Shown here: positions 41,339 through 60,722 of the stretch, in pieces
How the letters are laid out: every line of letters starts with the position of its first letter
How positions within the stretch are numbered: the first letter of the stretch is position 1
Assembly (NCBI GenBank): GCA_902784805.1
Contig: CACZWD010000001.1
Location: forward strand, 772-64,771
Reading direction: 5' to 3'
DNA length: 64,000 nucleotides
Origin: an uncultured Ruminococcus sp.
Lineage (GTDB): Bacteria; Bacillota; Clostridia; RUG12999
Notes under the pieces: generated by a model
The model's database searches: none
Told to the model about the DNA's origin: nothing
The model's input: only the letters and a program-made list of their open reading frames with translations
Program-made: the position numbers and the translations under genes

Positions 41339-41422
41339 TACGTCATCTGACTTTATTAACTGTTTAAGTATAGCATATTATTTTAAAATTGTCAATACTT
41401 TTAACAAATTTGTAATAAAGAT

Positions 41423-41450
41423 TGACTTTAAAAAAATCTTGTAGTATAAT
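41423..41450 (+). promoter_or_regulatory. Sigma-A-type promoter for the plus-strand polysaccharide operon
   Basis: TTGACT (41423-41428), a 16-nt spacer, then TATAAT (41445-41450). GGAGG RBS at 41475-41479 precedes the ATG at 41492. Confidence 0.5.
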
Positions 41451-41491
41451 ATATCTGTAAGTTTTTAAATAACCGGAGGTTGTCAAGAAGA

Positions 41492-42538
41492 ATGGACAAG
41501 CTTTTTATGTGCGGCTTTTTTGCGGACGGAAAGAATATTTATAATGGTCAGGCAATAAAAACACATGAAACATATAATTTGCTGAAAGATAAATTCGGAA
41601 AAGAAAAAATTGATTATGTTGATACTTATAATTGGAAAAAACGTCCATTAAACCTTATAAAAAATTTTTTTGTAAAAGCAAAAAAAGCCGGTTACATTAT
41701 TATGCTTCCCGCGCATAACGGCGTTAAAGTTTTTTCGTTGCTGTTACTGATTGCGAAAAAAATATTTAAGTGTAAAATATATTACGATGTTATAGGCGGC
41801 TGGCTGCCCGAAATGACAAAGAAAAACATAAAGCTTGAAAAGCGCCTTAAACGGTTTGACGGCATATGGGTTGAAACAAAAAATATGAAGGCTGCGCTTG
41901 AGAATCAAGGCTTTACGAATATAGGTATAGTGCCTAATTTTAAAAATATAACCCCTCTTAAAGAGGAAGAGCTTATTTTTAATACGGAAAAACCGTTTAA
42001 ATTTTGTTTTTTTGCGAGAGTTACAAAGGAAAAAGGTGTTGAAGAGGCTGTTAAGGCAATTAAAGAAATCAACAAAAAATACGGTAACAATACGGCAGTG
42101 CTTGATATATACGGACCGGTTAATTCTGATTACACCGAAGGTTTTGAAAAACTAAAAGTGAGTTTTGATAAAAGTATAAGGTATATGGGTGTTGTGCCGC
42201 CGGAAAAAAGCGTTGAAACAATTAAAAATTATTTCGCGCTTCTTTTTCCGACAAAATTTTATACGGAAGGCGTCCCGGGTACGATTGTTGACGCTTACGC
42301 GGCAGGCGTCCCGGTTATAACGTCAAGATGGCAAAGCTGCTTTGATATTTTTGAGGAAAACATAACAGGGCGCAGCTTTGAGTTTGAAAATTATGAGGAT
42401 TTTTTTGAAAAATTATCAGAAGCGGTGGGGCAGCCGGAGGATTTTTTAAAAATGAAAAAAAATTGTATTAACTTGTCTGCCTCATACACTCCCGAATACG
42501 CAATAAAAAAAATAGAAAAATTATTTGATAAAAATTAA
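41492..42538 (+). CDS. GT-B fold glycosyltransferase (GT4-like)
   Basis: C-terminal EGVPGTIVDAYAAGVPVITSRWQ matches the E-x7-E region of GT4/GT1 retaining transferases. Confidence 0.65.
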   Translation: MDKLFMCGFFADGKNIYNGQAIKTHETYNLLKDKFGKEKIDYVDTYNWKKRPLNLIKNFFVKAKKAGYIIMLPAHNGVKVFSLLLLIAKKIFKCKIYYDVIGGWLPEMTKKNIKLEKRLKRFDGIWVETKNMKAALENQGFTNIGIVPNFKNITPLKEEELIFNTEKPFKFCFFARVTKEKGVEEAVKAIKEINKKYGNNTAVLDIYGPVNSDYTEGFEKLKVSFDKSIRYMGVVPPEKSVETIKNYFALLFPTKFYTEGVPGTIVDAYAAGVPVITSRWQSCFDIFEENITGRSFEFENYEDFFEKLSEAVGQPEDFLKMKKNCINLSASYTPEYAIKKIEKLFDKN

Positions 42539-42550
42539 GGATGATATGCC

Positions 42551-43459
42551 GTGAGTTTTAATATATATAATCTTAAAAAATGGTATCTTATGCTTACCGG
42601 CAAAAGTATACTTCATGTTGATCAAGATATAGGAAAAATTTTTGAGACAGATAGAATAAAAGGATATTATAACAACCTTACCGATAAAGTTACAATGGAG
42701 CCGGAGCTTTTAACGAATGAGAAATTGCCGGAGCTGAAAACGGAAAGCGGCGAAACAGTTTTTTTCCCCGTCGCTGTTTTTCAATACGGACTTGGCGCGT
42801 ATGACCTTTATTTACAGACGGCGGATAATAAATATATTGATAAATTTAATCAATGTGTAAAGTGGACGATGGCAAATCAAGAAGAAAGCGGCGCTTGGAG
42901 TAATTTTTTCTTTGTATATAAAGATAATCCGTATGGCGCGATGTGCCAGGGAGAAGGAGCGTCGCTGCTTTTAAGAGCGTATAAGGAAACAAATGATGAA
43001 AAATATCTTGAAGCGGCAAGGAAAGCGATAGCCTTTATGCTTAAAGATGTGAAGAACGGCGGTACAACAAGTTATGACGGTGAAGATGTTATTCTTCTTG
43101 AATATACACATTTAAAACCTGTTATGAACGGTTGGATATTTGCTCTTTGGGGGCTTTACGATTTTAATATTGTTTCTCCCGAAGAGGAAAATATTAATGT
43201 CTATGAGAAAACGCTAAATTCTCTTATAAAGTATTTGCCGAGTTTTGACGGCAAATATTGGAGTATGTACGATTTGGATGGTAAAATTGCAAGCCCGTTT
43301 TATCATAACCTTCATATTGCGCAGATGCAGGCTGTGTATAAAATTACAGGTGAGAAAATATTTGCGGATTACGCGGAAAAATGGAAGAACGATAGCAAAA
43401 GCAAGATAAAAAAAGCGAGAGCTTTTGTAAAAAAAGCTTTTCAGAAAATAGCAGAGTAG
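42551..43459 (+). CDS. D-glucuronyl C5-epimerase C-terminal-domain family protein
   Basis: Resembles the (alpha/alpha)6-barrel C-terminal domain of heparosan/glucuronyl C5-epimerases (…GWIFALWGLYDF…YWSMYDLDG…YHNLHIAQMQAVYKITGE). Confidence 0.55.
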   Translation: MSFNIYNLKKWYLMLTGKSILHVDQDIGKIFETDRIKGYYNNLTDKVTMEPELLTNEKLPELKTESGETVFFPVAVFQYGLGAYDLYLQTADNKYIDKFNQCVKWTMANQEESGAWSNFFFVYKDNPYGAMCQGEGASLLLRAYKETNDEKYLEAARKAIAFMLKDVKNGGTTSYDGEDVILLEYTHLKPVMNGWIFALWGLYDFNIVSPEEENINVYEKTLNSLIKYLPSFDGKYWSMYDLDGKIASPFYHNLHIAQMQAVYKITGEKIFADYAEKWKNDSKSKIKKARAFVKKAFQKIAE

Positions 43460-43467
43460 GTTGTTAA

Positions 43468-44565
43468 ATGAAAAGAGTTTTATGTATAGTCGGAGGAATG
43501 AATGCGGGCGGCGCGGAAACATTCCTTATGAAAGTTTACCGCAGACTTGATAAAAATAAATACCAAATGGATTTTGCGGTTGCAAACGATGGCTGTTATG
43601 ATGAAGAAATACGCCTTATGGGCGGAAAAATATTTAAAATAACACCTAAAAGTCAAGGGTTTTTGAAAAATTTTTTGTCGGTGAAAAAACTTGTCAAAAA
43701 CGAGGGGTATAAATATGTTTTGCGTACATCGCAACATTCGCTTTCGGCAATGGAGCTTTTGGCGGCAAGGCTTGGAGGAGCTAAGAAGCTTATTTACAGG
43801 TCAAGTAATTCAAACACAATAGACGGGAGCAAAAAAGGCTTATTATTACATAAATTATGCGGCTTTATGCCGATATTTTTTGCGAATGTGCGTATTGCGC
43901 CTTCAACAGAGGCAGCTGAATTTATGTTTGGAAAAGACTGCGTAAAAAAAGGTAAAGCAACAATTTTAAACAATGGTATTGACATGAGGATTTTTAACTA
44001 TAATGGGCAAAACAGAAACGAATGTCGTGAAGAATTTAAGCTTAAAAATAAGTTTGTTGTAGGTCATATCGGAAGGTTTAGCGCACAAAAAAATCATGAC
44101 TTTTTGCTTGAAATATTTGCTGAAATAAAGAAAAAAAAAGAAGATTCAATCCTTTTAATTGTCGGTGGAGGCGAGCTTGAAGCAGAAATAAAGCAAAAAG
44201 CAAAGGAACTGAATGTTTTTGATAATATAGTTTTTACGGGTGTTCGAAGTGATGTTTCAAAGCTCTTAAGCGCAATGGACGTTTTTGTTTTTCCTTCGTT
44301 TTATGAAGGTATGCCAAACACGGTTATCGAGGCACAGGCAGAAGGACTTCCTTGTATAATATCCGATACAATAACAAAGGAAGCGGATATTACAGGGCTT
44401 GTAAAATATTTGCCACTTGATTTGTCGGCAGAAAAGTGGGCGGACGAAGTTATTGATTGCGTGTCTGCCGAACGCAAAGAAACAAAAGATGATTTTGTAA
44501 AAAATGGATATGATATAGATAGTGTGACAGATAAATTTATACAGTTTGTGTTTGGAGATAAATAA
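43468..44565 (+). CDS. Glycosyltransferase family 4 (GT-B)
   Basis: N-terminal VGGMNAGGAETFL and C-terminal FPSFYEGMPNTVIEAQAEGLPCIISD motifs. Confidence 0.8.
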   Translation: MKRVLCIVGGMNAGGAETFLMKVYRRLDKNKYQMDFAVANDGCYDEEIRLMGGKIFKITPKSQGFLKNFLSVKKLVKNEGYKYVLRTSQHSLSAMELLAARLGGAKKLIYRSSNSNTIDGSKKGLLLHKLCGFMPIFFANVRIAPSTEAAEFMFGKDCVKKGKATILNNGIDMRIFNYNGQNRNECREEFKLKNKFVVGHIGRFSAQKNHDFLLEIFAEIKKKKEDSILLIVGGGELEAEIKQKAKELNVFDNIVFTGVRSDVSKLLSAMDVFVFPSFYEGMPNTVIEAQAEGLPCIISDTITKEADITGLVKYLPLDLSAEKWADEVIDCVSAERKETKDDFVKNGYDIDSVTDKFIQFVFGDK

Positions 44566-45815
44566 TGAAAATAGGAACAAATAAAATACCGAATTATATA
44601 GTAAATGTATTGACAGTTTTTTTATTATTTACATTTACATCACTTAATAAAATCACTTGGGGAAGATACGCTTTTCTCGGAATTACAGCTATTATTTTTG
44701 TGATCTCAGCAAGCACATATTGCGGCGGAGTGAAATTTAGCGTGCAACCGTTTCATATTTTTTTGTTTGCTTTTGCTGTTTATTGCGGTATTTCTTCGTT
44801 TTGGGCCGTAAATCCGGCAATGTCGATATCCGATTTTAAAACAATATGTTCAATACTTATATGCTATTCTGTTATATATGCTCACTATCAAAAAGAAAAT
44901 AGTATTAATGTACTTTTTGATATTATCAAGTATTCAGGATTAGCCGTTGCTTTGTATACTATTTGTTTTTATGGATTAGATGACATGATTATATCGGCAA
45001 GTGATGAAAATTTAAGATTGGGAAATTCTTTTGCAAATGTTAACAATATTGGAGTTGTTATGGCTTTTACAATCATTATGATTTTTAAAAATTTTATTAC
45101 AAAGAGAAATTATAAAGAGCTGCTTTTAATGGCACCTTGTATTGTTGTTATTGCCGCAACACAGAGCAGAAAAGCAATGATAAGTGCAACTTTTGGAATA
45201 TTTTTAATGTTGATTGTGATTAATGAAAAGAATAAAAATTTTTATAAAAGGTTTTTTAAATTCTTTTGTGTTATTGCTATATTTGTTTTTTGTATATATG
45301 CTATTTCAAAGTTTTCAGCGTTTGTTGGCATGTCCGAACGTTTACAAAGTATGCTGGATGCGTTTAACGGAGACAAGGGAGCTGACAGTTCATCACTTAA
45401 ACGTTTGAACATGATACGTTATGGAATAAATAGTTTTAAACAGCATCCGTTTTTTGGGATAGGTATAAAAAACACATATATTATAACCCGAAGATATTGG
45501 GGAGTCAATACATATTTACATAACAATTATGTTGAGCTTTTAGCAGGCGGAGGAATATTTGGTTTCACAATATATTATTCAATATATGTATATCTAATAT
45601 ATAATGTTATAAAGTATAAAAATGTCGACAGAGAAAATTTTGGAGTTTTTACAGTATTATTAATTATTATGCTTGTTCTTGATTACGGCATAGTTACGTA
45701 TTATTCAAAGTTACAATATTTTTATTTTATGATAATGTTTTTACATATTGATTTAGTAAAGAAAAGAGTGGAATGTTTCAGTGAAGATACAAAAAATCCT
45801 CAAAGCGGCATATAA
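44565..45815 (+). CDS. wzy: O-antigen/capsule repeat-unit polymerase (Wzy / O-antigen ligase family)
   Basis: About 12 TM segments with a large loop containing the RxxxxxxxxG-like motif (TQSRKAMISATFG). AT-rich, as usual for wzy. Confidence 0.65.
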   Translation: MKIGTNKIPNYIVNVLTVFLLFTFTSLNKITWGRYAFLGITAIIFVISASTYCGGVKFSVQPFHIFLFAFAVYCGISSFWAVNPAMSISDFKTICSILICYSVIYAHYQKENSINVLFDIIKYSGLAVALYTICFYGLDDMIISASDENLRLGNSFANVNNIGVVMAFTIIMIFKNFITKRNYKELLLMAPCIVVIAATQSRKAMISATFGIFLMLIVINEKNKNFYKRFFKFFCVIAIFVFCIYAISKFSAFVGMSERLQSMLDAFNGDKGADSSSLKRLNMIRYGINSFKQHPFFGIGIKNTYIITRRYWGVNTYLHNNYVELLAGGGIFGFTIYYSIYVYLIYNVIKYKNVDRENFGVFTVLLIIMLVLDYGIVTYYSKLQYFYFMIMFLHIDLVKKRVECFSEDTKNPQSGI

Positions 45816-46698
45816 ATACATATTCAATAAAAATTACAGATTTTTAATAAATTCAGAGTTGCACTTTTACGATAAGATGCCTGATGAAAAATTTTTAAAG
45901 AAAAAGTTTAAAGCTGTTATGGGTAAAGGTCTTGATCTTGAAAACCCAATAACATTTAACGAAAAATTGCAATGGCTTAAGCTTTATGATAGAAAGCCTG
46001 AGTATACTATGATGGCGGATAAGTATGAGGTTAGAAAATATATAGCGAATAGGCTTGGGGAAGAGTACTTAATTCCACTAATTGGCGTGTGGGACAACCC
46101 TGACGATATTGATTTTGATAAGCTGCCTGATAAGTTTGTGCTTAAATGTAATCATAATTCCGGTCTTGGTATGTGTATATGCAAAGACAAATCGAAACTC
46201 AATATAAAAAAGGTTAAAAGAAAATTAAAAAAAGGCTTGAAACAGGATTATTATTTGACGTGTCGCGAATGGCCGTACAAAGAAATTAAGCGTAAAATAA
46301 TTGCGGAAAAATACATGGAGGATAGTACTGGAGAACTTATGGACTATAAATTTATGTGTTTTAATGGAAAAGTTAAATGTATTTTTACCTGTACGGAACG
46401 CTTTGATAATGATGGGCTTAAAGTCACTTTTTTTGATACAAATTGGCGAAAGCTGAATTTCAAACGACATTACCCGACCTCAGAAATAGACATCAGCAAA
46501 CCTGAAAATCTTGATGAAATGATATGTTTTGCGGAAATGCTTTCAAAAGATATTAATTTTTTACGAGTTGATTTTTATAATATTAACGGAAAAATATATT
46601 TTGGGGAATTAACATTTTTTCCTGGTTCGGGTTATGAAGAATTTACTCCCGAAAGTGTTGATGAAGAACTTGGAAATCTTATAAATATAACCGTATGA
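45781..46698 (+). CDS. TupA-like ATP-grasp amidoligase (teichuronopeptide biosynthesis family)
   Basis: …NPITFNEKLQWLKLYDRKP…DKFVLKCNHNSG…IYFGELTFFPGSGYEEF matches the TupA-like ATPgrasp family. The start (GTG at 45781) is uncertain. Confidence 0.65.
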   Translation: MKIQKILKAAYKYIFNKNYRFLINSELHFYDKMPDEKFLKKKFKAVMGKGLDLENPITFNEKLQWLKLYDRKPEYTMMADKYEVRKYIANRLGEEYLIPLIGVWDNPDDIDFDKLPDKFVLKCNHNSGLGMCICKDKSKLNIKKVKRKLKKGLKQDYYLTCREWPYKEIKRKIIAEKYMEDSTGELMDYKFMCFNGKVKCIFTCTERFDNDGLKVTFFDTNWRKLNFKRHYPTSEIDISKPENLDEMICFAEMLSKDINFLRVDFYNINGKIYFGELTFFPGSGYEEFTPESVDEELGNLINITV

Positions 46699-46773
46699 TA
46701 AAAGATTTATTTATTATTGAATTAAGGAGTAATGTCCTTTATTGAAATAAGGATGTTTTAAAGGAAAAGAGAT

Positions 46774-47901
46774 ATGAATATTATTATTGGAGCAGATATA
46801 GTGCCGACAAAAACTAATGACGATTTATTTGAGGTCGGAAATGCCGAAGCTTTAATGGAAAATGAGTTAACACATTTTTTGAATACTTCTGATTACCGTA
46901 TATTTAATCTTGAAACGCCTCTTACGGATACAGAGGCGCCCATATCAAAAAACGGACCGAATTTAATCGCAAGCGCAAAATCTGTGAACGGATATAAAGC
47001 TATTGGCGTAAATCTTTTAACCGTTGCAAATAATCATATTATGGATCAAGGCGAGCAGGGTTTTTTTTCAACACTAAAATTACTTAAAAAAAACGGAATT
47101 GATTATGTCGGCGCAGGAGAAAATGTTAGAACCGCAAGAGAACCGTATGTCTTTGAAATTGACAACATAAAAATTGGCGTTTATGCTTGTGCGGAGCATG
47201 AGTTTTCGATAGCAACAGAAAATATGGCAGGCGCAAATCCATTTGAGCCGTTAGATTCTTTTGACCACATCTGTGAGCTTAAACAGAAATGTGATAGAGT
47301 TATTGTTTTATATCATGGTGGAAAGGAACATTACAGATATCCATCACCTTATTTACAGAAGATATGCCGTAAATTTATTGAAAAGGGTGCTGATATTATA
47401 GTTTGTCAGCATAGTCATTGTGTAGGCTGTGAAGAAAAATACCTGCAAGGCACAATAGTTTACGGGCAGGGAAATTTTATATTCGACGCGCAAGATAATG
47501 AGTTTTGGAAAACAAGCCTTTTAATTTCCGTCAATGAAGAATTTAACATAAAATATATACCGTTAATAAAAAAAGGAAACGGTGTGAGATTTGCAAAAAA
47601 AAATGAAGCAAACAACATTCTTGATGGATTTAAAAAAAGAAGTGAGCAGATAAAACAGGCGGGTTTTTTAGAAAAGAAATATGCCGAGTTCGCCAAAGAA
47701 AATATTTATAATTATCTTTTAAACATATCCGGTATAAGGTATAGTTTTTTTATGAGAGTATTAAATAAAATCAGCAGAGGAAAATTTATTGTTTTTTTTA
47801 TAAAGAGAAAATACAAACAAAACAAGGTTTTAAAAATTATTAATTATATGGATTGTGAATCCCACAGAGAGCTTTTTTTAAAAGGTTTGGAAAGTATGTG
47901 A
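46774..47901 (+). CDS. CapA/PgsA-family protein (PGA_cap, metallophosphatase fold)
   Basis: NLETPLTDTE…GVNLLTVANNHIMDQG…VLYHGGKEH…VCQHSHC are the hallmark blocks of the poly-gamma-glutamate CapA family. Confidence 0.7.
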   Translation: MNIIIGADIVPTKTNDDLFEVGNAEALMENELTHFLNTSDYRIFNLETPLTDTEAPISKNGPNLIASAKSVNGYKAIGVNLLTVANNHIMDQGEQGFFSTLKLLKKNGIDYVGAGENVRTAREPYVFEIDNIKIGVYACAEHEFSIATENMAGANPFEPLDSFDHICELKQKCDRVIVLYHGGKEHYRYPSPYLQKICRKFIEKGADIIVCQHSHCVGCEEKYLQGTIVYGQGNFIFDAQDNEFWKTSLLISVNEEFNIKYIPLIKKGNGVRFAKKNEANNILDGFKKRSEQIKQAGFLEKKYAEFAKENIYNYLLNISGIRYSFFMRVLNKISRGKFIVFFIKRKYKQNKVLKIINYMDCESHRELFLKGLESM

Positions 47902-47964
47902 TATGGGGGAAAGAAACAATTTAAAGTTTTTGATATGAACCCCATTTCAGTAAATGTTGGGTTG

Positions 47965-48032
47965 AATAAAGTTTCGCACACATGTTGTATTTTATATGAA
48001 TATACGTGCGAAACTTTATTTCGTTTTATATT
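47965..48032. terminator. Bidirectional terminator between the two convergent polysaccharide operons
   Basis: Perfect 15-bp inverted repeat AATAAAGTTTCGCAC (47965-47979) and GTGCGAAACTTTATT (48006-48020) followed by TCGTTTTATATTATTA. Confidence 0.6.
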
Positions 48033-48033
48033 A

Positions 48034-49038
48034 TTATGCGTCTTTTTTGATAAGCAGCTTCTTTTTTAAGCAGCCGGATAAAGGCAACTCTATATATTTA
48101 TGTATACAATAAGCAAGAATCATATTTATTGCAAGCAGGGCAATAATAATACATATTGATTGAAAGTTGAATACTTTGATTTTTAAATTATATAGTACGA
48201 GATATGTCACTTTTTGGTGTATTAAATAAAGAGGATATGATATTGCCGATAAAAAAACAAGCGGTTTGTCATATTTAAACTTTATATTTGTTTTCGCGAA
48301 GATAAATATAAGCAGCGCTGAAATTAATACAAATACAGCTTTTGCCGAAACAGGTATAATTAAAGCGAATATAATGGCAATGTTAAAATAAGACAAAAAA
48401 GCTTTTTTGTTTTTTATAATTAACGCGATGGACATACCGATAATAAACTCATGCGCGTGTTCCGCCAAGAATAACACATTGAAAAATGTGTAAAGCCTGC
48501 CGGCGAACACCATTTTACCGAACAATTTATATATTATAACCACAAACAGCCATAACGTATTTATTTTTTCAATATGTTTTATCAGTTTCAGTTTAATCAG
48601 TCCGGCAATTATTAATGAAAAACCGACTTCATAAAGCAACGTCCAATAAACGCCGTCAACACAAGGCGTCATCAAAAATTCCTGCAGCATTGTAAAATTT
48701 ATCAGCGTAGGTATGACACCGATAAAACTTGCTTTATCAAGTAAAACTGTAAAAATTGTGGTGAATATTATCCCAAACCAATATGCGGGATAAAGACGTA
48801 TAGCTCTTTTTAAAAGAAAATTAGAAGCTTTTGTATCGGATTTCATATTATTAATAACAAGATACCCCGTTATCATGAAAAATACAGCCACAGCCCAGCA
48901 GCCCCACCACAAACCTATGTGGTTTTTTTCGTGTTCAAGCCCGATATATGAGTCCCACTATCTGACGGTATAGTGATATAAGGCGATAAACACGGCGCAT
49001 ATACCGCGAATATAATCAAGACCATATATTTTTTTCAT
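48034..49038 (-). pseudogene. Acyltransferase family 3 (O-acyltransferase) gene interrupted by a single in-frame TAG
   Basis: Reading from the ATG at 49038 gives MKKIYGLDYIRGICAVFIALYHYTVR-TAG-WDSYIGLEHEKNHIGLWWGCWAVAVFFMITGYLV…. This is the canonical acyltransferase-3 N-terminus continuing in the same frame into the ORF-track ORF 48034..48912. Only the TAG at 48958-48960 breaks it. Confidence 0.7.
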
Positions 49039-49081
49039 AATGCTTCACAATCCTTTTAAAATATTTTTTGTTTTTTGCCGG

Positions 49082-50155
49082 TTAATATAAATATTTCAAG
49101 AAATTATATTTTTGACTGAGTTTTATTATAATAAATGAAATGACGCCGCAAATTAACAGTGTACTAAAAAATAAAATGGTACATTTATATATTGAATGTA
49201 TATCATAATTTGCAGAAATATATTTGTTTAAAAGAATCATTATAGAACCATGGGAACAATATATAATTGTCGAAGTTTTTCTAAATATGGTATAAATCGG
49301 CTTATATTCAAGCGGTATTTTTAAGCATAAAATAAGTAATGAAGCCGATAACAATGGTAACATCATACAGGTTGTTCCCGATTTCGGCATATAATCTGTC
49401 GTGGTATAAAACAGCAAAAAAATCTCCGCAGCGGTTAAAATAAATAAGAAAGTAAATATAATTAATGCTTTTTTTACGGAGATATTAATACTTTCTTCAT
49501 GCTCTGCTATGATTTTACCTATAACAAAAAATATCAAAGCAAACGGGAAAGATATATAAAACGTTCCCCAATAGTGATTTATAAGATCAAATATTTTATT
49601 TAAGTGTTCTCCTGTCAAAAAATTATAGTAAGTCATAAGAAGACATATAATATAACAGAAAACAGCGATACCGATTGCAAGGCGGTTTTTGCCTTTATCT
49701 GTTTTACAGGCGAAAAACAAAAGTATAGCATCTATGATGCATGCCATTAAAAACCAGGAAGCGGGAAAGCCGTTGCCGAGTATAATATCACGAATAAGAA
49801 TAATAAACGATTTTAAAGACATATTATTTGGAAATCCGAGTTTAAACACCGCTACATAAACACCGTTTAACAAAAACCATACCGAATATAGTATAAACAG
49901 ACGTTTACAGTAATTAAAAACTCTCATGTGCGGCTCGGGACTTTTTTTCATCCCTCTGAATAAAAAATAACTGCTGGTTACAAAGAAAAACGGAACGGCT
50001 ATTCTGCAAATTACAAATATAATAAAAACGTAACCATAGCCATAAACAGAATTTTGGCGCAGAGAAAAATTACCGACCTGACAAGAATGTAACAAAATTA
50101 TAAGAATCGAAAAAACAAATTTTAAAATGTCTATTGATGCGTTTTTACTTTTCAT
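49082..50155 (-). CDS. Acyltransferase family 3 (membrane O-acyltransferase)
   Basis: N-terminal IDILKFVFSILIILLHS and 10 TM segments. Confidence 0.75.
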   Translation of the reverse strand: MKSKNASIDILKFVFSILIILLHSCQVGNFSLRQNSVYGYGYVFIIFVICRIAVPFFFVTSSYFLFRGMKKSPEPHMRVFNYCKRLFILYSVWFLLNGVYVAVFKLGFPNNMSLKSFIILIRDIILGNGFPASWFLMACIIDAILLFFACKTDKGKNRLAIGIAVFCYIICLLMTYYNFLTGEHLNKIFDLINHYWGTFYISFPFALIFFVIGKIIAEHEESINISVKKALIIFTFLFILTAAEIFLLFYTTTDYMPKSGTTCMMLPLLSASLLILCLKIPLEYKPIYTIFRKTSTIIYCSHGSIMILLNKYISANYDIHSIYKCTILFFSTLLICGVISFIIIKLSQKYNFLKYLY

Positions 50156-51210
50156 TTCGTTTTCCTTTCTCCGATAATTACAGGAACGGTATATCTTATT
50201 ATTATTGTCAGCCCATATGATATAATAACCGTAACAAAGGATATTGCGGTAACAACAAGAAAATTATCCGCCTGTGGGAAAGCGGCGTTACAGATATGGC
50301 AAAGCTTTTGAATAATAGGCTTATGAAGTAAAAAAATAGGCATCGTGCTTTTCCCCAAAGCAATAAGCGGTGAAATATTAAGTCGCATTTTTGTAACAAA
50401 AGCTGAAAAAGATGTCAGCATAACAGTTCCGAGCATTGCGTCCATAATATATAAAAAGTAATTTCCGTATTCCGAGCTTGCCATATCGACATTGTTTATT
50501 TGTATATACTTTAAATTTAATTTAAAAGTAAAGAACAAGAAAACAAAAGTAAAAACCGTAAAAAACAATAAATTTACGCCGCTGTAAAATTTAACGTATT
50601 TTCTGGTTATCACTTTAAAAATATATCCGAAAAGTATAAAGGCACATGCCATTGGCGCAACGTTAACACACCACGGATAGCCGATTTTAATGTGCGGAAG
50701 AAAATAGGAAATCATGCTTAAAACAAATGCAAATACCATTATGGTAAAATATTTGTATGGATTTTTGCATTTCAGCGAATTTACAAAACACATAATTATC
50801 TCCGTAAAGCAAACCGCCGCAAACATACACGGCAAAAACCATATTGATGTCAGGGAATCGGCAGCTTTAAAGCCGTACTGACTGCCGTACAAAATATATA
50901 GAAATGATTTAATACTGAAGGAGCCTTGTTTTATGCCGTTTAAAGCGGCATAAAACAAGGACCAGAAGGCGGCGGGGATAATTAATCTTTTTAATTTTCC
51001 GAAAACAAATAGTTTTGTTAAAAAACCTTTGTTTTCGTGAGAAGATAAATTATATGTCAAGCCGTAAACAAAAAAGAATACAGGCATATGAAAAGAGTAT
51101 ATAAACTGTTTAAGGGCATTGTCACAAAGGGGGGCGTGCGCAAATACTACCAAAAAAATAGCAAATGCTTTTAACACATCGACATAATCATATCTTTTCA
51201 TAAATATCAT
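50152..51210 (-). CDS. Acyltransferase family 3 (membrane O-acyltransferase)
   Basis: RYDYVDVLKAFAIFLVVFAHAP N-terminus. Start is ambiguous: TTG at 51216, ATG at 51210 or ATG at 51201. Confidence 0.7.
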   Translation of the reverse strand: MIFMKRYDYVDVLKAFAIFLVVFAHAPLCDNALKQFIYSFHMPVFFFVYGLTYNLSSHENKGFLTKLFVFGKLKRLIIPAAFWSLFYAALNGIKQGSFSIKSFLYILYGSQYGFKAADSLTSIWFLPCMFAAVCFTEIIMCFVNSLKCKNPYKYFTIMVFAFVLSMISYFLPHIKIGYPWCVNVAPMACAFILFGYIFKVITRKYVKFYSGVNLLFFTVFTFVFLFFTFKLNLKYIQINNVDMASSEYGNYFLYIMDAMLGTVMLTSFSAFVTKMRLNISPLIALGKSTMPIFLLHKPIIQKLCHICNAAFPQADNFLVVTAISFVTVIISYGLTIIIRYTVPVIIGERKTK

Positions 51211-52163
51211 CACCAATTTTGCAATAATATATTTGTACTTACTTCATTGAACATTCTTATACGCGCTTCAACCGTACCTCCCGCTATATGCGGCGTTACA
51301 ATAACATTTTTCATATTCTCATTCCACATACCGAAAACCTTATCGGCGTCAACATCCATACCTATACAAAAGCAGTCGTTGTCACGGGCTTTTTTAAAAA
51401 GGTGAGCGTTATCGGTAAGCTCCGACCTTGATACAGATATAAAAACCGCATTGTTCTTCATATTATTTATTCTTGAAGCGGAAATAATGCCTTCCGTTTC
51501 GGGCGTGTACGGTAAATTCAGCGAAATTATATCGGAAGATTTTATAAGCTCGTCAAGTTCCGTAAACACCACTCCGTCATCAGATAAATCGGTATGCTTT
51601 TCAGGATTTCTTGTCCATGAGATTCGTTCCATTCCGAATGCCTTTGCCATTTTAAGTACGGCTCCGGCAGTACCGCCTGCGCCGATAATGCCAATAGTCA
51701 AACCATAAAGGTCATGCGGTTTATAACGCATTTCCTTCTTGTTTTTGCCAAGCGCAGCCGTAATTTTGCCGTCAATGAACTGTTTTTTCAGCGCGATTAT
51801 AAGTCCAAAAATATGTTCTGCCACGGATATTTTATTGGCATTCGGCGCATTTACAACCTTGATAATATTTTTTTTGTCATCGGGAATACTGATATGATCC
51901 GTGCCTATGGATGCGGTTGCTATTATTTTTTTGCAAGGGGGGGTGTTTTTTAACATATTTTCGGTTATCTTTTGCGCAGTGCTTATGATTATAATATCGT
52001 ATTCATCTATAAGCTTTTTGAGTTCATTTCCACAAGGACGTTCTTTACCTTTCGGGTGAAGAATTACTTTAATATTATTTTTTTCCAGAAGCTCCGAAGC
52101 GGATTTAGGGAAATCGTCAAATACCGAATATGCTATCATATCAATTCTCTCCAAAGTAGTCAT
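51210..52163 (-). CDS. D-isomer-specific 2-hydroxyacid dehydrogenase family protein (NAD-binding)
   Basis: GIIGAGGTAGAVLKMAKAFGM Rossmann motif and a catalytic R/E/H framework (VTPHIAGGT). Confidence 0.8.
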   Translation of the reverse strand: MTTLERIDMIAYSVFDDFPKSASELLEKNNIKVILHPKGKERPCGNELKKLIDEYDIIIISTAQKITENMLKNTPPCKKIIATASIGTDHISIPDDKKNIIKVVNAPNANKISVAEHIFGLIIALKKQFIDGKITAALGKNKKEMRYKPHDLYGLTIGIIGAGGTAGAVLKMAKAFGMERISWTRNPEKHTDLSDDGVVFTELDELIKSSDIISLNLPYTPETEGIISASRINNMKNNAVFISVSRSELTDNAHLFKKARDNDCFCIGMDVDADKVFGMWNENMKNVIVTPHIAGGTVEARIRMFNEVSTNILLQNW

Positions 52164-53880
52164 TTAAATATTGTGCCGCAAACGTTCTGTCACAGGCGGC
52201 TTTTTTTTCGGCAGGCATATTTTTGAGTAAATCTATTAAAATATCTGTTGTTACCCTGCTGTCCTTTAAAAATATAGAAATATAGCTCGGTGTGCAGCCG
52301 TAAAGCGAAGAAAGGAAGTAATCCAGACAATAGCCCCACGGATTTGTCTTTATTACATTCGCAAAATACTCAGATATTTCATCATATATCTCTATGGTGC
52401 TGTAACAATTACCTTCAGAATTAAGAACGGGAATAATAAGCTCGGTGCAAAGATTTCCCGCGCCTTTTCCCATACCCGTAATGCTTGCATCAAGCATAAG
52501 ATCATGGTTTAATGGACAGTTCACTGCCACGCAAGCGTTTGCAAACGCCAACTGTCTGTTGTTGTGGGCGTGAAAACCGATTTTCATAGTGCTGCTTACG
52601 TGATGGTCAACCAGATCAAGCATATGAAGAAGAGAAACGCTGTCCATTTGTCCGAAACTGTCAACAACATAAAAAGCTTTTGCTTCCGGTAATTCTTTAT
52701 TACAACAAGCTATCAGCTCTAAAAATTCATCATCGGAATAGCGTATTGAAACCATAGGCTGAATATATAATTCGTAGCCGCGCTGCAATATTTTTTTGGC
52801 ATTTATTATTGCATCGCGCCAATTTTCTTTATGAAAAGCGTATCTTATACCATCAATACCGGAAACGTCGGCAGCTTGCAATTTATCCAAATCAAAGGTG
52901 CCGTAATCTATCATCGCAAGGTATTTAACACCTGTTTTTTTGCCTGATTTAAGTATAGTGTTTTTAATACTTGTTGGATTATCAAAACAGGTATGACCGT
53001 CATCCAAGCCTGTTTTTTCGTTTATATAGCCACATTCTATATATTCAACACCTGAATTTTCAAGACATTCCTTTATTTTAATTGCCCGTTTTAAACCAAA
53101 ATCAAATTTTATTACGATACCACCGTCGCGCAAAGTACAATCGAGAAGCTGAATTTTCCGTGTTTTCTTGGCTGTACGCATAACTCTATCGGCAATATCC
53201 AGGTCATTATCTGTCGTAATTTTAAAATTACTTGTGTGTCCTGTGACAATTTTTATTTTATATCCTGCCTTAAGCATAAGCTGAGTTGTGCCGGTAACGG
53301 CGCTTTTGTCGCTGTTACCGAAACGGTTAAGGGTATCATGTAAAAGCTTTAAATTAAAGCCGGAGGGAGTTTGTCCATTATATAAGCTGTTACGATCAAG
53401 TGTGCCTGTTATAAAATCTTTATCATTGTATGAAATAAACATCGTATCCGTTGTCGGTATTACCGTAAGGGCAAGTCCGGCTTCTTTTGTTGCTTTAATA
53501 CAATCATCAATCATTTGTTCGCTTACAAAAGGACGCACAGAATCGTGGCAAATAAGAATATCGCTGTCATTAAGTCCGGTTCTTTCTATAATATCATCCA
53601 TAATATTTACAAATGAATCAATGCGTTCTTTGCCGCCGGAAACTATGCGAATCCTTTGAAGCTCATTTTTTGAAAAATGCTGCTTAAACAGATTTTCAGC
53701 GTATTCCGTCCACTCCGGATGTACGGCGATATATATAATATCAATGTTTGTATTATCAATGAATTTACGAAGCGTCAGAAGTATAATCGGAACTCCGCCT
53801 ATTGATATGAACTGTTTTGGTATAGAGTGACGTTCTATTCGCTTTCCTGTTCCTCCTGCTAAAATTGCTGCATATATCAT
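52141..53880 (-). CDS. Bifunctional protein: N-terminal IspD/TarI-like cytidylyltransferase fused to a C-terminal HMGL-like (DmpG/pyruvate-carboxyltransferase TIM-barrel) domain
   Basis: N-terminus AAILAGGTGKRIERHSIPKQFISIGGVPII is the IspD-family signature. C-terminal half has LLDCTLRDGG (DRE-TIM) and FHAHNNRQLAFANACVAV (HxH), as in 4-hydroxy-2-oxovalerate aldolase/HMG-CoA lyase-like enzymes. AAAGGGGAAAAAAT RBS. Confidence 0.7.
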   Translation of the reverse strand: MIYAAILAGGTGKRIERHSIPKQFISIGGVPIILLTLRKFIDNTNIDIIYIAVHPEWTEYAENLFKQHFSKNELQRIRIVSGGKERIDSFVNIMDDIIERTGLNDSDILICHDSVRPFVSEQMIDDCIKATKEAGLALTVIPTTDTMFISYNDKDFITGTLDRNSLYNGQTPSGFNLKLLHDTLNRFGNSDKSAVTGTTQLMLKAGYKIKIVTGHTSNFKITTDNDLDIADRVMRTAKKTRKIQLLDCTLRDGGIVIKFDFGLKRAIKIKECLENSGVEYIECGYINEKTGLDDGHTCFDNPTSIKNTILKSGKKTGVKYLAMIDYGTFDLDKLQAADVSGIDGIRYAFHKENWRDAIINAKKILQRGYELYIQPMVSIRYSDDEFLELIACCNKELPEAKAFYVVDSFGQMDSVSLLHMLDLVDHHVSSTMKIGFHAHNNRQLAFANACVAVNCPLNHDLMLDASITGMGKGAGNLCTELIIPVLNSEGNCYSTIEIYDEISEYFANVIKTNPWGYCLDYFLSSLYGCTPSYISIFLKDSRVTTDILIDLLKNMPAEKKAACDRTFAAQYLNDYFGEN

Positions 53881-53945
53881 ATTTTTTCCCCTTTGTAATT
53901 AACTCTTTATATAATACTATATTAATTTTAATAAATTAGCATGTT

Positions 53946-55886
53946 TTATAAATTAAAATGCTCAACTATCCTTTTACAATTATTATTATCTCTGAAATCG
54001 TCCATCTTATATAGCAAAGCATTGCGTTCATCTTTATAATCATCTATATCTTTGTACACTGTGTCAAGAAAATCAAAGAGTTCTGCGTTTGTTTTAATTT
54101 TTTGTCCCGGCATATAATCATAGACATTATCCATTATAAAGCCTCTTTTATATACATCTATATCGTTAATAAAGAAGCCTATTGGTTTGTTCATCTGCAA
54201 GAAATCAAAGCTTACAGACGAATAGTCTGATAACATAGCGTCTGCATACCCTATCATTTCATACAACTGCAAATTAATATCTAAAAGATTATCATCTGTT
54301 AAATATAAAATATTGGATAGCAAAACTCGTTTCATAAAATCTAATGTCTGAAGATGGTGTACTTTAACAATCATTAACATTTTTTTGTTTTTGAGAAATT
54401 CGTTTAGTTCTTGCAATTCATCTTCATTTGATATTGTGTTTATTGAATAGATATTAAGAAACTCACCGTCCGTCCAGTATTTTGCTTGTCTAAAAGTTGG
54501 CATACACAGAATAATTTTTTGATATGTATCCTCACTTATATATTTTGATAATTTTTTCTTTATATCTATAGTTTTATACATCAAATCAAGCCTCGGTCTA
54601 CCTATGACAAGCATTTGTTCATCTTTTGCTCCCATAGCTTTAGAATACAGTTGTTTTGACCATTCTGACGATATACAATGAAAGTTTAAAAAACCGCTTA
54701 AGTCTTTACCAGCACCTTTTAATGGGATTCCATGTGACAAAGTCACAACTGTCTGATCTTTCTTCCATTTTTTCAGCCACCATGGATGCGTAAAAAAGAA
54801 ATATCTGGCTCTTGCAACATAATACCTAAGTCTTATGCTTTCATAAAAATTTGTAGGTGAAATAAATACAACATTTTCCATATTCATTTTCTTGAATCTG
54901 TTTATATTCTGTACCTTCCACACAAATCTGTATTTCTTATTATAGCCATGCTCGATCATGTATTCGAACAATGCTCTGCCATTATCACAAAAGTCACCCT
55001 CGGTTTCAAAAAACAGGGTATTGTTCGTTTTTACAATTTTAGGCATAACGGAAGAAATTATATTCATACTAAATTTTATCGCATAATTCTTTGATTTTGA
55101 AACAAGCTTCTTTAAAAATCCGACAAAGCCAACTTTCATTAGTAACAATCGTAATCTGTTTCTTCTGTACCATTTTTTGTATTTTTGTCTTCCTAATGTA
55201 CCCCCATATTTGCTATAATAATATTTCTGTTTTTTTAGATAAAGGTTTTCGAGACTTCCAAACCATGAGCCATTAAAATGATGTATTGAGACTGTGTTGT
55301 CCGTAAGTGCTATATTTCCGGTTTCATAACTTTTTGGACAAAAATAATCCTTCGGATACATAGTCAGAATACCCTCAATATTTTGATATGTATTATTGAG
55401 TTCTATATTATATTTTTCCTTTGTCATATTTGTTATTGTGATAACGTTGGTTGTATTGTCAAAGGTGCCGTCGGGTTTTACGAAATGTCTGTCATCATAG
55501 TATGATAAAAGATAGCCTACCCATTCGCCGTGGTTTTCCGACCCCATAAGGGCGGTGGGAATATGGGTTTCATCCTCAAAACCCGAAAAAGCGGTACAGC
55601 TTAAAAAGCTGTCGGGACTTTTTATAAGCTCGACATCGGTATCCATATAAAGACCGCCTTCGTTATATAAGGCGTAAAGTCTTACATAGTCCGTTATGAA
55701 CGCCCATTTTTTGTTTTCATATGCTTCCCGTACATATGTATTTGAATTTACATCAAAGTTTTTTTCGTTCCATTCCTTTATCTCATAATCGGGACAATAT
55801 TTTTTCCAGCTTTCTATATATCGTTTGGTTTCCTCCGGAAGAGGATTTCCACCAAACCAGCAATAGTGTATTATTTTTGGTATCAT
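53946..55886 (-). CDS. Fusion of a GT32-like DXD glycosyltransferase domain with a TagB/TagF-like CDP-polyol phosphotransferase domain
   Basis: N-terminal 230 aa: IIHYCWFGGNPLPE…YVRLYALYNEGGLYMDTDVEL (Gly_transf_sug/Caps_synth type). C-terminal about 400 aa has the Glyphos_transf architecture (…VTLSHGIPLKGAGKD…MLSDYSSVSFDFLQMNKPIGFF). Confidence 0.7.
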   Translation of the reverse strand: MIPKIIHYCWFGGNPLPEETKRYIESWKKYCPDYEIKEWNEKNFDVNSNTYVREAYENKKWAFITDYVRLYALYNEGGLYMDTDVELIKSPDSFLSCTAFSGFEDETHIPTALMGSENHGEWVGYLLSYYDDRHFVKPDGTFDNTTNVITITNMTKEKYNIELNNTYQNIEGILTMYPKDYFCPKSYETGNIALTDNTVSIHHFNGSWFGSLENLYLKKQKYYYSKYGGTLGRQKYKKWYRRNRLRLLLMKVGFVGFLKKLVSKSKNYAIKFSMNIISSVMPKIVKTNNTLFFETEGDFCDNGRALFEYMIEHGYNKKYRFVWKVQNINRFKKMNMENVVFISPTNFYESIRLRYYVARARYFFFTHPWWLKKWKKDQTVVTLSHGIPLKGAGKDLSGFLNFHCISSEWSKQLYSKAMGAKDEQMLVIGRPRLDLMYKTIDIKKKLSKYISEDTYQKIILCMPTFRQAKYWTDGEFLNIYSINTISNEDELQELNEFLKNKKMLMIVKVHHLQTLDFMKRVLLSNILYLTDDNLLDINLQLYEMIGYADAMLSDYSSVSFDFLQMNKPIGFFINDIDVYKRGFIMDNVYDYMPGQKIKTNAELFDFLDTVYKDIDDYKDERNALLYKMDDFRDNNNCKRIVEHFNL

Positions 55887-57427: not shown

Positions 57428-57455
57428 CTCACAATCGTATTGTCCTTTTTTAATA

Positions 57456-59484: not shown

Positions 59485-59504
59485 AGAAATTCCATCCTTT
59501 AAGT

Positions 59505-60455: not shown

Positions 60456-60722
60456 GGATAAGCAAGTCCCCCTTCTGTAAAATGAAAAAGCCCGGAGTTC
60501 TGTTTTTTTAATTATAAAACGGCTAAAATTTTTGTGTAAAAATAACAAATTATTAAAACTAACCGGCTGTATAATTTACATAATCTATTTTATTTTACCA
60601 TACTTTTAGAAATAAAGCAATAGTTTTTTTAAAAAATATGCAATTTCAGAACGAACTATACTAAAAAAATTAAAACAGAATAAAAATATACGAGATAAGG
60701 TGCTTTTTCAGCAGAAAAAATA

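Follow-up and report, generated by a model that had tools for sequence, protein, structure and literature searches.

The surface-polysaccharide locus of an uncultured Ruminococcus sp. analysed here encodes a D-glucuronyl C5-epimerase-like protein, a TupA-like ATP-grasp protein and a CapA/PgsA-like (PGA_cap) protein, which raises the question of whether the three act as one unit and what glycan they would modify. The window, that is the whole stretch of DNA analysed, comprises 64,000 nt of contig CACZWD010000001.1 (GCA_902784805.1; positions 772 to 64,771, forward strand). Within it, positions 41480-60548 form a surface-polysaccharide locus of the Wzx/Wzy type in a gut Clostridia-type anaerobe, a probably horizontally mobile island of low GC content (0.30-0.36 vs 0.40-0.44 in the flanks). 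The flanks consist of housekeeping genes, as does the DNA just past both window ends. Families were called by a Pfam scan with curated cut-offs, and the scores lie so far over these (for C5-epim_C, 143.7 bits vs a cut-off of 23.3) that chance matches are ruled out. An ORF check confirmed the following plus-strand coordinates; the operon is preceded by a promoter-like site, listed with it.

41422..41450, plus strand: promoter-like site, TTGACT + 17-nt spacer + TATAAT, 11/12 matches (consensus scan; a consensus match only)
41480..42538, plus strand: GT4 glycosyltransferase "GT4a", 352 aa (Pfam Glycos_transf_1, E=1e-17)
42551..43459, plus strand: GLCE-like hexuronyl C5-epimerase, soluble, 302 aa, helical domain only (PF06662 C5-epim_C, E=6e-42)
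43468..44565, plus strand: GT4 glycosyltransferase "GT4b", first gene of the conserved cassette (Pfam Glycos_transf_1, E=6e-29)
44565..45815, plus strand: Wzy-type repeat-unit polymerase, ~10 TM segments (Pfam Wzy_C, E=3e-20; TM scan)
45781..46698, plus strand: TupA-like ATP-grasp amidoligase, 305 aa, soluble (PF14305 ATPgrasp_TupA, E=3e-73)
46774..47901, plus strand: PGA_cap protein (CapA/MslH-like, calcineurin-fold), soluble, partner of TupA (PF09587, E=3e-50)

A convergent minus-strand operon completes the locus.

48034..51216, minus strand: three tandem Acyl_transf_3 membrane O-acyltransferases (48034-48912, 49082-50155, 50152-51216; Pfam, TM scan)
51210..52163, minus strand: D-2-hydroxyacid dehydrogenase family protein, PGDH/glyoxylate-reductase-like (Pfam, NCBIfam)
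52141..53880, minus strand: TarI-like cytidylyltransferase fused to an HMGL-like class II aldolase domain (Pfam, NCBIfam, PDB matches)
53946..55886, minus strand: DXD glycosyltransferase domain fused to a TagF-like CDP-alditol phosphotransferase (Pfam Gly_transf_sug + Glyphos_transf)
55883..57427, minus strand: Wzx-type flippase, multi-TM (Pfam Polysacc_synt; TM scan)
57456..59484, minus strand: two GT2 glycosyltransferases (57456-58517, 58501-59484; Pfam)
59505..60548, minus strand: DUF6625 protein, first gene of this operon (Pfam, E=6e-92)

The preliminary description of this DNA had placed the three proteins in PF06662, PF14305 and PF09587 within a Wzy locus with GT4 transferases. All three assignments hold at the positions and E-values listed, and the Wzx/Wzy type is borne out by the Pfam matches to GT4, Wzy_C and Polysacc_synt. 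With five or six transferases, the predicted product is a repeat-unit heteropolysaccharide, not one of the polyuronate synthase type. The cytidylyltransferase-aldolase fusion belongs to an NCBIfam ribitol-5-P cytidylyltransferase subfamily (220 bits vs a cut-off of 166), with TarI and the "putative aldolase" 3dxi as PDB matches, and is predicted to supply a CDP-activated substituent. By TM scan, none of the epimerase, TupA and PGA_cap proteins has a membrane segment, and their solubility fits the need of an ATP-dependent cytoplasmic step.

By comparing gene neighbourhoods, we found that the trio is two separable modules and not the single functional unit that had been proposed. Genes like GT4a, which falls in cluster c9 of the cassette census, usually neighbour the short-type C5-epimerases and adjoin the C5-epimerase gene in 24 of 46 de-duplicated loci; TupA accompanies GT4 and C5-epimerase in just 5 of the 46. 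The genes GT4b-Wzy-TupA-PGA_cap, for their part, form a cassette found across many phyla. The 80 species genomes with this PGA_cap subfamily span many phyla, and 74-76 of them also have TupA; it lies directly upstream of PGA_cap on the same strand in 54 and at most three genes away in 73, and the PGA_cap loci that break the pairing have at most 2 kb of upstream sequence. The GT4 of 58/80 PGA_cap loci falls in the cluster of GT4b (c2), and the Wzy_C gene of 50/80 in that of the locus Wzy (c3). As the TupA-PGA_cap cassette occurs in at least 532 species genomes, it is doubtful that this glycan chemistry is "uncommon", as initially supposed. TupA proteins coupled to PGA_cap and uncoupled ones share up to 80% identity, and a C. 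perfringens capsule locus carries the same GT4-GT4-Wzy-TupA cassette together with a UDP-glucose dehydrogenase (UGDH) and without PGA_cap. Since such close relatives of TupA occur without PGA_cap, the latter would be an optional step downstream of TupA.

The epimerase-like protein has zebrafish and human GLCE as sequence matches. Its residues E184, Y185, N193, Y240 and Y251 align to GLCE E499, Y500, N510, Y560 and Y578, and four of these five catalytic positions are invariant across 22 homologues. The AF2 model (pLDDT 92.5) also has GLCE as best PDB match (E=6e-12). Because the full GLCE catalytic set is kept and the model matches GLCE best, it is well supported, from sequence and model, that the locus glycan would carry a uronic acid inverted at C5, in agreement with the preliminary description. 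The PF06662 helical domain and all five catalytic residues are common to the locus protein, GLCE and the Bermanella marisrubri homologue, and so, probably, is action after the uronic acid has entered a glycan. In contrast to animal GLCE, the locus protein (302 aa) is without the N-terminal beta-hairpin and beta-barrel domains, and its probable substrate is not a long polymer but a short, lipid-linked repeat unit. Proteins of this short PF06662 type had previously been noted in O-antigen and capsule clusters, such as that of E. coli O112ab, which has L-IdoA in its O-antigen, and those of Firmicutes and Bacteroides were among the candidates given in 2011 (PMC3068255).

The TupA-like protein matches PF14305 over its full length (profile positions 1-240 of 241), has K122, E176, R262, D264 and E276 invariant in 57 homologues and shares 67% identity with a C. 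perfringens "ATP-grasp fold amidoligase family protein". Cj1438C, to which a TupA-like ATP-grasp fold is ascribed, was shown to amidate the C6 carboxylate of GlcA (PMC11800379), and by this precedent the most plausible reading of the protein in our Wzx/Wzy locus is an amidoligase that acts on a sugar carboxylate, in line with the amidated uronic acid first suggested. As predicted for the locus, the C-terminal domain of Cj1438 from C. jejuni HS:2 is a capsule-locus TupA-like ATP-grasp, amidating glucuronic acid C6 in the cytoplasm, and the group it attaches is processed further by another enzyme (PMC11800379); this is the HAD phosphatase Cj1435 in C. jejuni, whereas PGA_cap is the partner here. 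However, the C. jejuni ligase is fused to a GT2, works in an ABC-transporter-type pathway and uses phospho-amines from dedicated PLP enzymes, whereas ours stands alone in a Wzy cassette of a Wzx/Wzy-type locus without amine-synthesis genes. Bacillus halodurans TupA, the founding member of PF14305, joins the amino-acid component of teichuronopeptide to a uronic acid polymer; our locus has neither polyglucuronate nor polyglutamate machinery and makes, by prediction, a repeat-unit heteropolysaccharide instead. The earlier label "teichuronopeptide-like" holds only in part: beyond the TupA-like amidoligase and the predicted uronic acid, nothing of that system is present.

The earlier remark that the window has no UGDH is correct: nothing in it matches a profile made from the UGDHs of related loci, one of which was Pfam-verified as UDPG_MGDP_dh. 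Nor was a priming transferase found in these 64 kb. Because the window has no UGDH, we infer the uronic acid of this locus solely from the epimerase, TupA and related loci. UGDH genes (one cluster member Pfam-verified) lie within 10 kb in 29/80 TupA-PGA_cap loci, and two loci with the gene order of the window (L040 and L177) carry a UGDH and an NAD-dependent epimerase.

In sequence and profile searches of the PDB, the PGA_cap protein has significant matches to MslH (PDB 8GQ9), a lasso-peptide C-terminal Trp epimerase, and to nothing else. MslH is also the best Foldseek match of the AF2 model (pLDDT 82.6; E=1e-18 vs 4e-8 for the first phosphatase), at ~17% identity in the structural alignment. 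PGA_cap E47, N87, H88, D91, H181 and H215 align to MslH E44, N87, H88, D91, H259 and H295 and are invariant; the MslH metal ligand H261 is replaced by G183, and D11, left unaligned by HMMER, matches D8 by position only. With 66.5 bits on the MslH equivalog model (cut-off 700), and a polysaccharide rather than RiPP context without an MslB1-type partner, the protein is, by sequence, a distant relative of MslH, not an orthologue. The PgsA/CapA of the PgsBCA poly-gamma-glutamate synthetase offers a second comparison, as it shares PF09587 and the pairing with an ATP-dependent amide ligase, which is of Mur-ligase type (PgsB) there and an ATP-grasp here. PgsA is membrane-anchored, whereas the locus protein is soluble and has no PgsC beside it. 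A Pfam scan of the locus found neither PgsB nor PgsC and a TM scan of the PGA_cap protein no membrane anchor, which speaks strongly against a role as poly-glutamate machinery; PGA_cap is no sign here of the poly-gamma-glutamate or short poly-amino-acid chain of the preliminary description. MslH, a metal-dependent enzyme, epimerises the last residue of a peptide, with the carboxylate of that residue placed at the metal site (PMC10406935), and the MslH authors proposed CapA as the peptide epimerase of PGA synthesis (PMC8179263). In the literature, we found no other PGA_cap member with a demonstrated reaction.

Gene content and neighbourhood statistics, together with the family assignments and the conserved catalytic residues, lead us to propose a modular model, quite possible though tentative. 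Its chemical steps are all predictions, as are the nature of the uronic acid and of the amine and, most of all, the reaction of PGA_cap. GT4a and the soluble epimerase (module 1) would act on a cytoplasmic lipid-linked repeat unit, the epimerase inverting a hexuronic acid at C5 (from D-GlcA to L-IdoA, or the corresponding change if the uronic acid is a different one). In the GT4b-Wzy-TupA-PGA_cap cassette (module 2), TupA would activate a sugar carboxylate with ATP, most likely the uronic acid C6, and join it through an amide bond to an amino acid or amine, also on the lipid-linked repeat unit. PGA_cap would then tailor the TupA product. By analogy with MslH, its most likely reaction is an L-to-D epimerisation of the attached residue by metal-assisted acid/base chemistry at the alpha-carbon. 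That residue would be an N-acyl amino acid whose carboxylate is free, which chemically resembles a peptide C-terminus; the MslH substrate is likewise an amide-held residue with a free carboxylate. The convergent operon would provide the flippase, more glycosyltransferases, a CDP-activated phospho-substituent and O-acylation, with the priming transferase and UDP-uronic acid supply encoded elsewhere.

The PGA_cap sequence fits an epimerase or a phosphoesterase alike, and its H213-x-H215 resembles the ligand pattern of the YmdB phosphodiesterase. TupA might then ligate a phosphorylated amine (ethanolamine phosphate, serinol phosphate or O-phosphoserine) from which PGA_cap, a metallophosphoesterase, strips the phosphate, like the HAD phosphatase of C. 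jejuni HS:2. The calcineurin-like fold, phosphatases and nucleotidases as next-best structural matches, the likeness of D8, E47, N87, H181, H213 and H215 to the metal ligands of YmdB as given in PMC10406935 and the C. jejuni precedent of an amidoligase using phospho-amines followed by a phosphatase all speak for it. We nevertheless consider it unlikely: as a structural match, no phosphatase comes close to MslH, no conserved phospho-amine synthesis genes lie beside the cassette in the 80 loci, TupAs up to 80% identical lacking PGA_cap would be odd for an obligatory deprotection, and a literature search turned up no protein of the PGA_cap family for which phosphatase activity has been demonstrated. 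Rather improbable, too, is a PGA_cap that precedes TupA or works on the sugar itself, as a metal-dependent uronic acid C5 epimerase whose product is locked by amidation. This would use MslH-like proton abstraction alpha to a metal-bound carboxylate and account for the tight coupling with TupA, but a GLCE-like C5-epimerase with intact catalytic set is already encoded in the window, same-cassette TupAs occur without PGA_cap, and a PGA_cap independent of the TupA product should sometimes lack TupA, which it almost never does.

Similarly improbable is that TupA uses another acidic group here, for example a hydroxy-acid phosphate made through the CDP pathway of the convergent operon. The missing UGDH, the unusual cytidylyltransferase-aldolase fusion, 2-hydroxyacid dehydrogenase and TagF-like transferase next door, and a pyruvyl transferase in 8/80 related loci would agree with it; yet the fusion is matched full-length in 0/80 cassette loci, a uronic-acid-specific epimerase shares the TupA operon, UGDH is common among related loci and the characterised relative Cj1438C acts on GlcA. 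Very improbable is the teichuronopeptide-like scheme originally put forward, in which TupA and a CapA/PgsA-type protein place poly- or oligo-glutamate on a polyuronate. PF09587 does take its name from PGA capsule proteins, and extra L-amino-acid-ligase-type ATP-grasp genes in some related loci could lengthen a peptide; however, this locus, a heteropolysaccharide system rather than a polyuronate synthase, has no second amide ligase in addition to the missing PgsB, PgsC and anchor.

We thus favour the model in which PGA_cap tailors the residue attached by TupA. TupA-PGA_cap is a widespread gene pair, apparently undescribed, and it could help reveal the function of CapA-type proteins.

Profile searches and an open reading frame check of the window placed the genes that the preliminary description had assigned to the D-glucuronyl C5-epimerase, TupA-like ATP-grasp and CapA/PgsA-like (PGA_cap) families exactly where it had put them, all on the plus strand. 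The assignments themselves are sound, since every Pfam score on this strand far exceeds the curated cut-off. The GT4 transferases and Wzy polymerase said to accompany them are also present, and a convergent operon follows on the opposite strand:

41480-42538, plus strand: GT4 glycosyltransferase, here GT4a (Pfam)
42551-43459, plus strand: C5-epimerase (C5-epim_C, PF06662; 143.7 bits against a cut-off of 23.3, E=6e-42)
43468-44565, plus strand: GT4 glycosyltransferase, here GT4b (Pfam)
44565-45815, plus strand: Wzy polymerase, Wzy_C (Pfam, TM scan)
45781-46698, plus strand: TupA (ATPgrasp_TupA, PF14305; 246.8 bits, E=3e-73, profile positions 1-240 of 241)
46774-47901, plus strand: PGA_cap protein (PF09587; 171.5 bits, E=3e-50)
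60548 to 48034, minus strand: convergent operon (Pfam), with the genes below
59505-60548, minus strand: DUF6625 protein, first gene of the operon (Pfam, E=6e-92)
within the operon, minus strand: two GT2 transferases (Pfam)
55883-57427, minus strand: Wzx-type flippase, Polysacc_synt (Pfam, TM scan)
53946-55886, minus strand: fusion of a DXD-glycosyltransferase and a TagF-like phosphotransferase (Pfam)
52141-53880, minus strand: fusion of a TarI-like cytidylyltransferase and an HMGL-like class II aldolase
51210-52163, minus strand: PGDH/glyoxylate-reductase-like 2-hydroxyacid dehydrogenase
48034-51216, minus strand: three tandem Acyl_transf_3 genes

With both a Wzy polymerase and a Wzx flippase, this is a Wzx/Wzy-dependent polysaccharide locus. 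Neither a priming (initiating) transferase nor a chain-length regulator was found in the 64-kb window. A profile search of the 64 kb also confirmed that it holds no UDP-glucose dehydrogenase (UGDH), and profiles built from related loci detected no Bac_transf, NAD-dependent epimerase, second ATP-grasp/amide ligase or DegT gene in the window. A terminator scan revealed no convincing terminator between the convergent operons. The GC content of the 19-kb polysaccharide block (41400-60600) is 0.30-0.36, compared to 0.40-0.44 in the flanks, and the block is bordered by a Na:alanine symporter gene on one side and azlCD on the other. This low GC content and the insertion between those genes suggest a horizontally exchanged, strain-variable island. 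Several gut-type metagenome assemblies carry the same locus. Outside the block, the window is housekeeping DNA, as are the sequences adjoining both window ends. Elsewhere in the window we noted three tandem M42 aminopeptidase paralogues (7537-10521, minus strand) adjoining a MurD-like ligase gene, and a single protein (29132-30994, minus strand) combining flavodiiron-type metallo-beta-lactamase, flavodoxin, flavin reductase and rubredoxin domains, a combination characteristic of strict anaerobes and in keeping with a Clostridia-type host.

By running a profile of the PGA_cap subfamily on species-representative genomes, we obtained 80 loci for examination. A short-epimerase profile run on metagenomes likewise gave 80 loci, reduced to 46 by de-duplication at 90% identity, and all open reading frames of both sets were annotated with purpose-built profiles. 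The preliminary description had read the epimerase, TupA and PGA_cap genes as pointing together to one chemistry. As a conserved unit, this trio had to be rejected: the C5-epimerase was found in 2 of the 80 PGA_cap loci, and TupA in 5 of the 46 epimerase loci (3/23 where at least 5 kb was present on both sides). A GT4a-like gene, for its part, adjoins the epimerase in 24/46. Given this adjacency and the rare co-occurrence of the epimerase with TupA or PGA_cap, GT4a and the C5-epimerase form one module, inserted in the window into a second cassette whose conservation is far greater. Three related loci (L034, L040 and L177) show the complete gene arrangement of the window again; two of them, L040 and L177, contain UGDH and an NAD-dependent sugar epimerase, which supports the presence of a uronic acid.

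The conserved cassette is centered on TupA and PGA_cap. Its 80 genomes include Clostridia, Thermoguttaceae, Fibrobacter, Sphaerochaeta, Prevotella, Atribacterota, Paenibacillus and others, the nearest species-representative relative of the window PGA_cap (63% identity) being in Candidatus Scatosoma sp. Anaerobutyricum hallii DSM 3353 (locus L052) is a cultured carrier of the cassette. A full TupA-like gene occurs in 74/80 loci, and in two more the contig edge cuts the gene short; where the full gene is missing, the upstream sequence extends 2 kb at most. TupA lies within three genes of PGA_cap in 73 loci, and in 54 it is directly upstream on the same strand, often overlapping the PGA_cap start. 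Clustering of the neighbours gave the order GT4 (58/80), Wzy_C (50/80), TupA, PGA_cap, in which the GT4 and Wzy_C clusters are the same families as GT4b and Wzy of the window. Flippases are a frequent addition, and Bac_transf (27/80), NAD-dependent epimerase (33/80), UGDH (20/80 by cluster, 29/80 by profile) and L-amino-acid-ligase-type ATP-grasp genes (cluster c11, 15/80) also recur. We found no paper linking the PF14305 and PF09587 families in the literature searched, where no description of this near-obligate pairing within a four-gene mobile cassette seems to exist.

TupA is frequent in other loci without PGA_cap. For example, a Clostridium perfringens capsule locus has GT4-GT4-Wzy-TupA and UGDH, no PGA_cap, and a TupA 67% identical to that of the window. 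Moreover, TupAs with and without PGA_cap reach 80% identity to each other and interleave, so that the PGA_cap-coupled ones are weakly supported as a separate clade (nearest neighbours share the label in 84/104 cases, against 61% expected by chance). Thus, the dependence is one-way, PGA_cap being an optional step that needs TupA and, on the most economical view, works on the TupA product.

The related loci contain further features of their own. In L001 (12272-14953) a flippase is fused to an ATP-grasp domain, and in loci with c11 (e.g. L012, 14566-15774) the L-amino-acid-ligase-type ATP-grasp gene directly follows the flippase; these arrangements hint at di- or oligopeptide decorations on some related glycans. 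Neither the fusion nor an ATP-grasp gene of that type is present in the window. Five loci (L176 6001-7778, L013, L027, L058 and L079) encode a long TupA of ~450 aa followed by a separate ~145-aa open reading frame that also matches the TupA profile, located between TupA and PGA_cap in all except L176, which has no PGA_cap. A ~500-aa protein with ~12 TM segments (cluster c10, 17/80 loci; L009 2300-3805), often just after PGA_cap, and a 456-aa protein at the polymerase position of L177 (4623-5993) have no Pfam match and are probably divergent flippase- or polymerase-type proteins. Finally, a PF14907 (NTP_transf_5) nucleotidyltransferase recurs in TupA loci (L013 12069-13259, whose cluster c19 spans 11 loci; L176 7797-9011; L177 11242-12390).

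The convergent operon of the window encodes an unusual gene set at 51210-55886 (minus strand), consisting of the cytidylyltransferase-aldolase fusion, the 2-hydroxyacid dehydrogenase and the DXD-glycosyltransferase/TagF-like fusion. It looks like a route to a CDP-activated polyol or hydroxy-acid phosphate, unlike standard CDP-ribitol or CDP-glycerol. None of the 80 PGA_cap loci has a full-length match to the cytidylyltransferase-aldolase fusion, and homologues of the DUF6625 protein (46-53% identity), which may be a glycosyltransferase, occur in five. The first Acyl_transf_3 gene (48034-48912; 292 aa from a TTG start) matches its profile only from position 43 on, so an N-terminal truncation or a wrongly placed start is possible.

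The only strong PDB sequence matches of the window C5-epimerase are zebrafish and human heparan-sulfate D-glucuronyl C5-epimerase (GLCE), at about 1e-16. Its confident AlphaFold model (pLDDT 92.5) likewise ranks eight GLCE chains first (E about 1e-11, the best at 6e-12; rmsd 3.0 Å over 208 columns), the next fold family scoring about 6e-5. E184, Y185, N193, Y240 and Y251 align to zebrafish GLCE E467, Y468, N478, Y528 and Y546, which correspond to human E499, Y500, N510, Y560 and Y578, so that all five positions are matched; these are the GLCE catalytic set of Debarnot 2019, as quoted in PMC13308652. Four of them (E184, N193, Y240 and Y251) never vary among 22 homologues (56-84% identity), and most of these homologues have Y at position 185. 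In contrast to the animal enzyme, the 302-aa protein lacks the N-terminal beta-hairpin and beta-barrel domains: it consists of the helical (alpha/alpha) domain alone, aligning from about residue 77 on to the C-terminal domain of GLCE only, and a TM scan found no TM segment or signal-like N-terminus. Taking together fold, catalytic residues, domain content and solubility, the PF06662 protein is probably a cytoplasmic hexuronyl C5-epimerase acting on the lipid-linked repeat unit. Its probable product would be IdoA or another L-uronic acid, both compatible with the data, and we consider it quite likely that a uronic acid in the repeat unit is epimerised. Short bacterial PF06662 proteins are not a new class, since Raedts et al. 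2011 (PMC3068255) already listed examples, 302-323 aa long and encoded in O-antigen and capsule clusters, from Firmicutes, Bacteroides and other bacteria, including E. coli O112ab, whose O-antigen contains L-IdoA. Among bacterial PF06662 proteins, the Bermanella enzyme is the only one assayed.

TupA matches its profile end to end, lies in a surface-polysaccharide locus and has no sequence relative in the PDB. K122, E176, R262, D264 and E276 are invariant among 57 homologues, and we take them, by analogy with ATP-grasp enzymes, to bind nucleotide and metal. The TM scan indicates a soluble protein, which fits an ATP-requiring cytoplasmic step. The domain at the C terminus of C. jejuni capsule amidoligase Cj1438 (Cj1438C), described as having a TupA-like ATP-grasp fold, was shown to form amides at the C6 carboxylate of GlcA and is the sole TupA-like case with demonstrated sugar-carboxylate amidation (PMC11800379). 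The general prediction for TupA-like enzymes encoded in O-antigen loci is that they attach amino acids (PMC13419641). Reasoning from Cj1438C, it is likely that TupA amidates the uronic acid. The epimerase and the amidoligase are new members of already known enzyme kinds.

The CapA/PgsA-like gene had been attributed to the poly-gamma-glutamate (PGA) machinery, an attribution that we reject. Neither PgsB (Mur-ligase type) nor PgsC is encoded in 41480-60548, where all genes belong to other families, and the sole Mur ligase of the window is the MurD-like gene at 10528-11877, far from the polysaccharide locus. PgsA of the PGA synthetase is membrane-anchored; the window PGA_cap has no N-terminal anchor or hydrophobic segment, and the 81 members of its subfamily lack one throughout. 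A teichuronopeptide system is not supported either: the TupA homologue alone is present, with no polyglucuronate or PGA synthesis genes.

Instead, the PGA_cap protein resembles MslH, the epimerase of the C-terminal Trp of a lasso peptide. MslH entries are its only significant PDB sequence relatives, and the structural comparison of its model (pLDDT 82.6) gave E=1e-18 for MslH, the highest-ranked phosphatase/nucleotidase reaching about 4e-8. Unlike MslH, it is encoded in a polysaccharide locus and not in a lasso-peptide cluster, and its sole NCBIfam match, the MslH model NF038314, is far under the equivalog cut-off (66.5 bits against 700). MslH epimerises the C-terminal residue of a peptide in a Ca(II)-dependent manner, using the dyads H88/D91 and D11/H295 and the metal ligands E44, N87, H259 and H261, with the substrate carboxylate at the metal site (PMC10406935). 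PGA_cap E47, N87, H88, D91, H181 and H215, invariant in the subfamily, align to MslH E44, N87, H88, D91, H259 and H295. Three dyad residues (H88, D91 and H215) are thereby aligned, and D8, also invariant, sits at the N-terminal position equivalent to that of D11 yet is left unaligned by HMMER. Of the metal ligands, E47, N87 and H181 are kept; H261 aligns to G183, and E185, H186 or H213 might substitute for it.

Since these residues are kept, and since an N-(uronoyl) amino acid has the chemistry of a peptide C-terminus, we propose that PGA_cap would convert the amino acid attached by TupA from L to D by epimerisation of its alpha-carbon. For PGA synthesis, the MslH authors have proposed CapA as the peptide epimerase (PMC8179263). 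The absence of H261 and the unaligned D8 weaken the MslH analogy, and PGA_cap could instead be a phosphatase acting after the amidoligase, as in C. jejuni, where an amidoligase is paired with a phosphatase; the HxH motif also resembles the YmdB phosphodiesterase pattern. However, the cassette has no conserved phospho-amine synthesis genes alongside it in the 80 loci, and close relatives of TupA, such as that of the C. perfringens locus, do without PGA_cap. On sequence, model and analogy, the amino-acid epimerase is a tentative assignment that could well be wrong.

Together, these data make an amidated, C5-epimerised uronic acid in the Wzy repeat unit the best reading, and this part of the preliminary description stands; its analogy with teichuronopeptide and poly-glutamate is not supported. 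The complete model, with epimerised uronic acid, amidation by TupA and epimerisation by PGA_cap, falls slightly short of an even chance.

Amidation and C5-epimerisation of uronic acids alter capsule charge, shape and antigenicity, and little of the glycan repertoire of gut anaerobes has been mapped. If PGA_cap were a phosphatase, the locus would be an unremarkable variation on the C. jejuni scheme. As an epimerase, PGA_cap would account for how polysaccharides could acquire D-amino acids, and would offer a soluble, small-substrate system to probe CapA/PgsA-type proteins, whose function has long been open because the membrane-bound PGA enzymes are unstable (PMC8179263). A broader and rather doubtful possibility is that the soluble PGA_cap proteins following TupA in many phyla are a new glycan-tailoring class, metal-dependent epimerases turning a uronic-acid-amide-linked L-amino acid to D on the lipid-linked repeat unit. 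If so, an ATP-dependent amide ligase followed by a PGA_cap epimerase would be a two-enzyme logic common to PGA synthesis, lasso peptides and capsules, and the soluble enzymes would offer a practical way into the old question of what CapA/PgsA does. The useful result is not the trio but a soluble CapA/MslH-like protein almost always tied to TupA, in a GT4-Wzy-TupA-PGA_cap cassette of hundreds of species, and this pairing suggests, in testable form, what CapA-type proteins may do.
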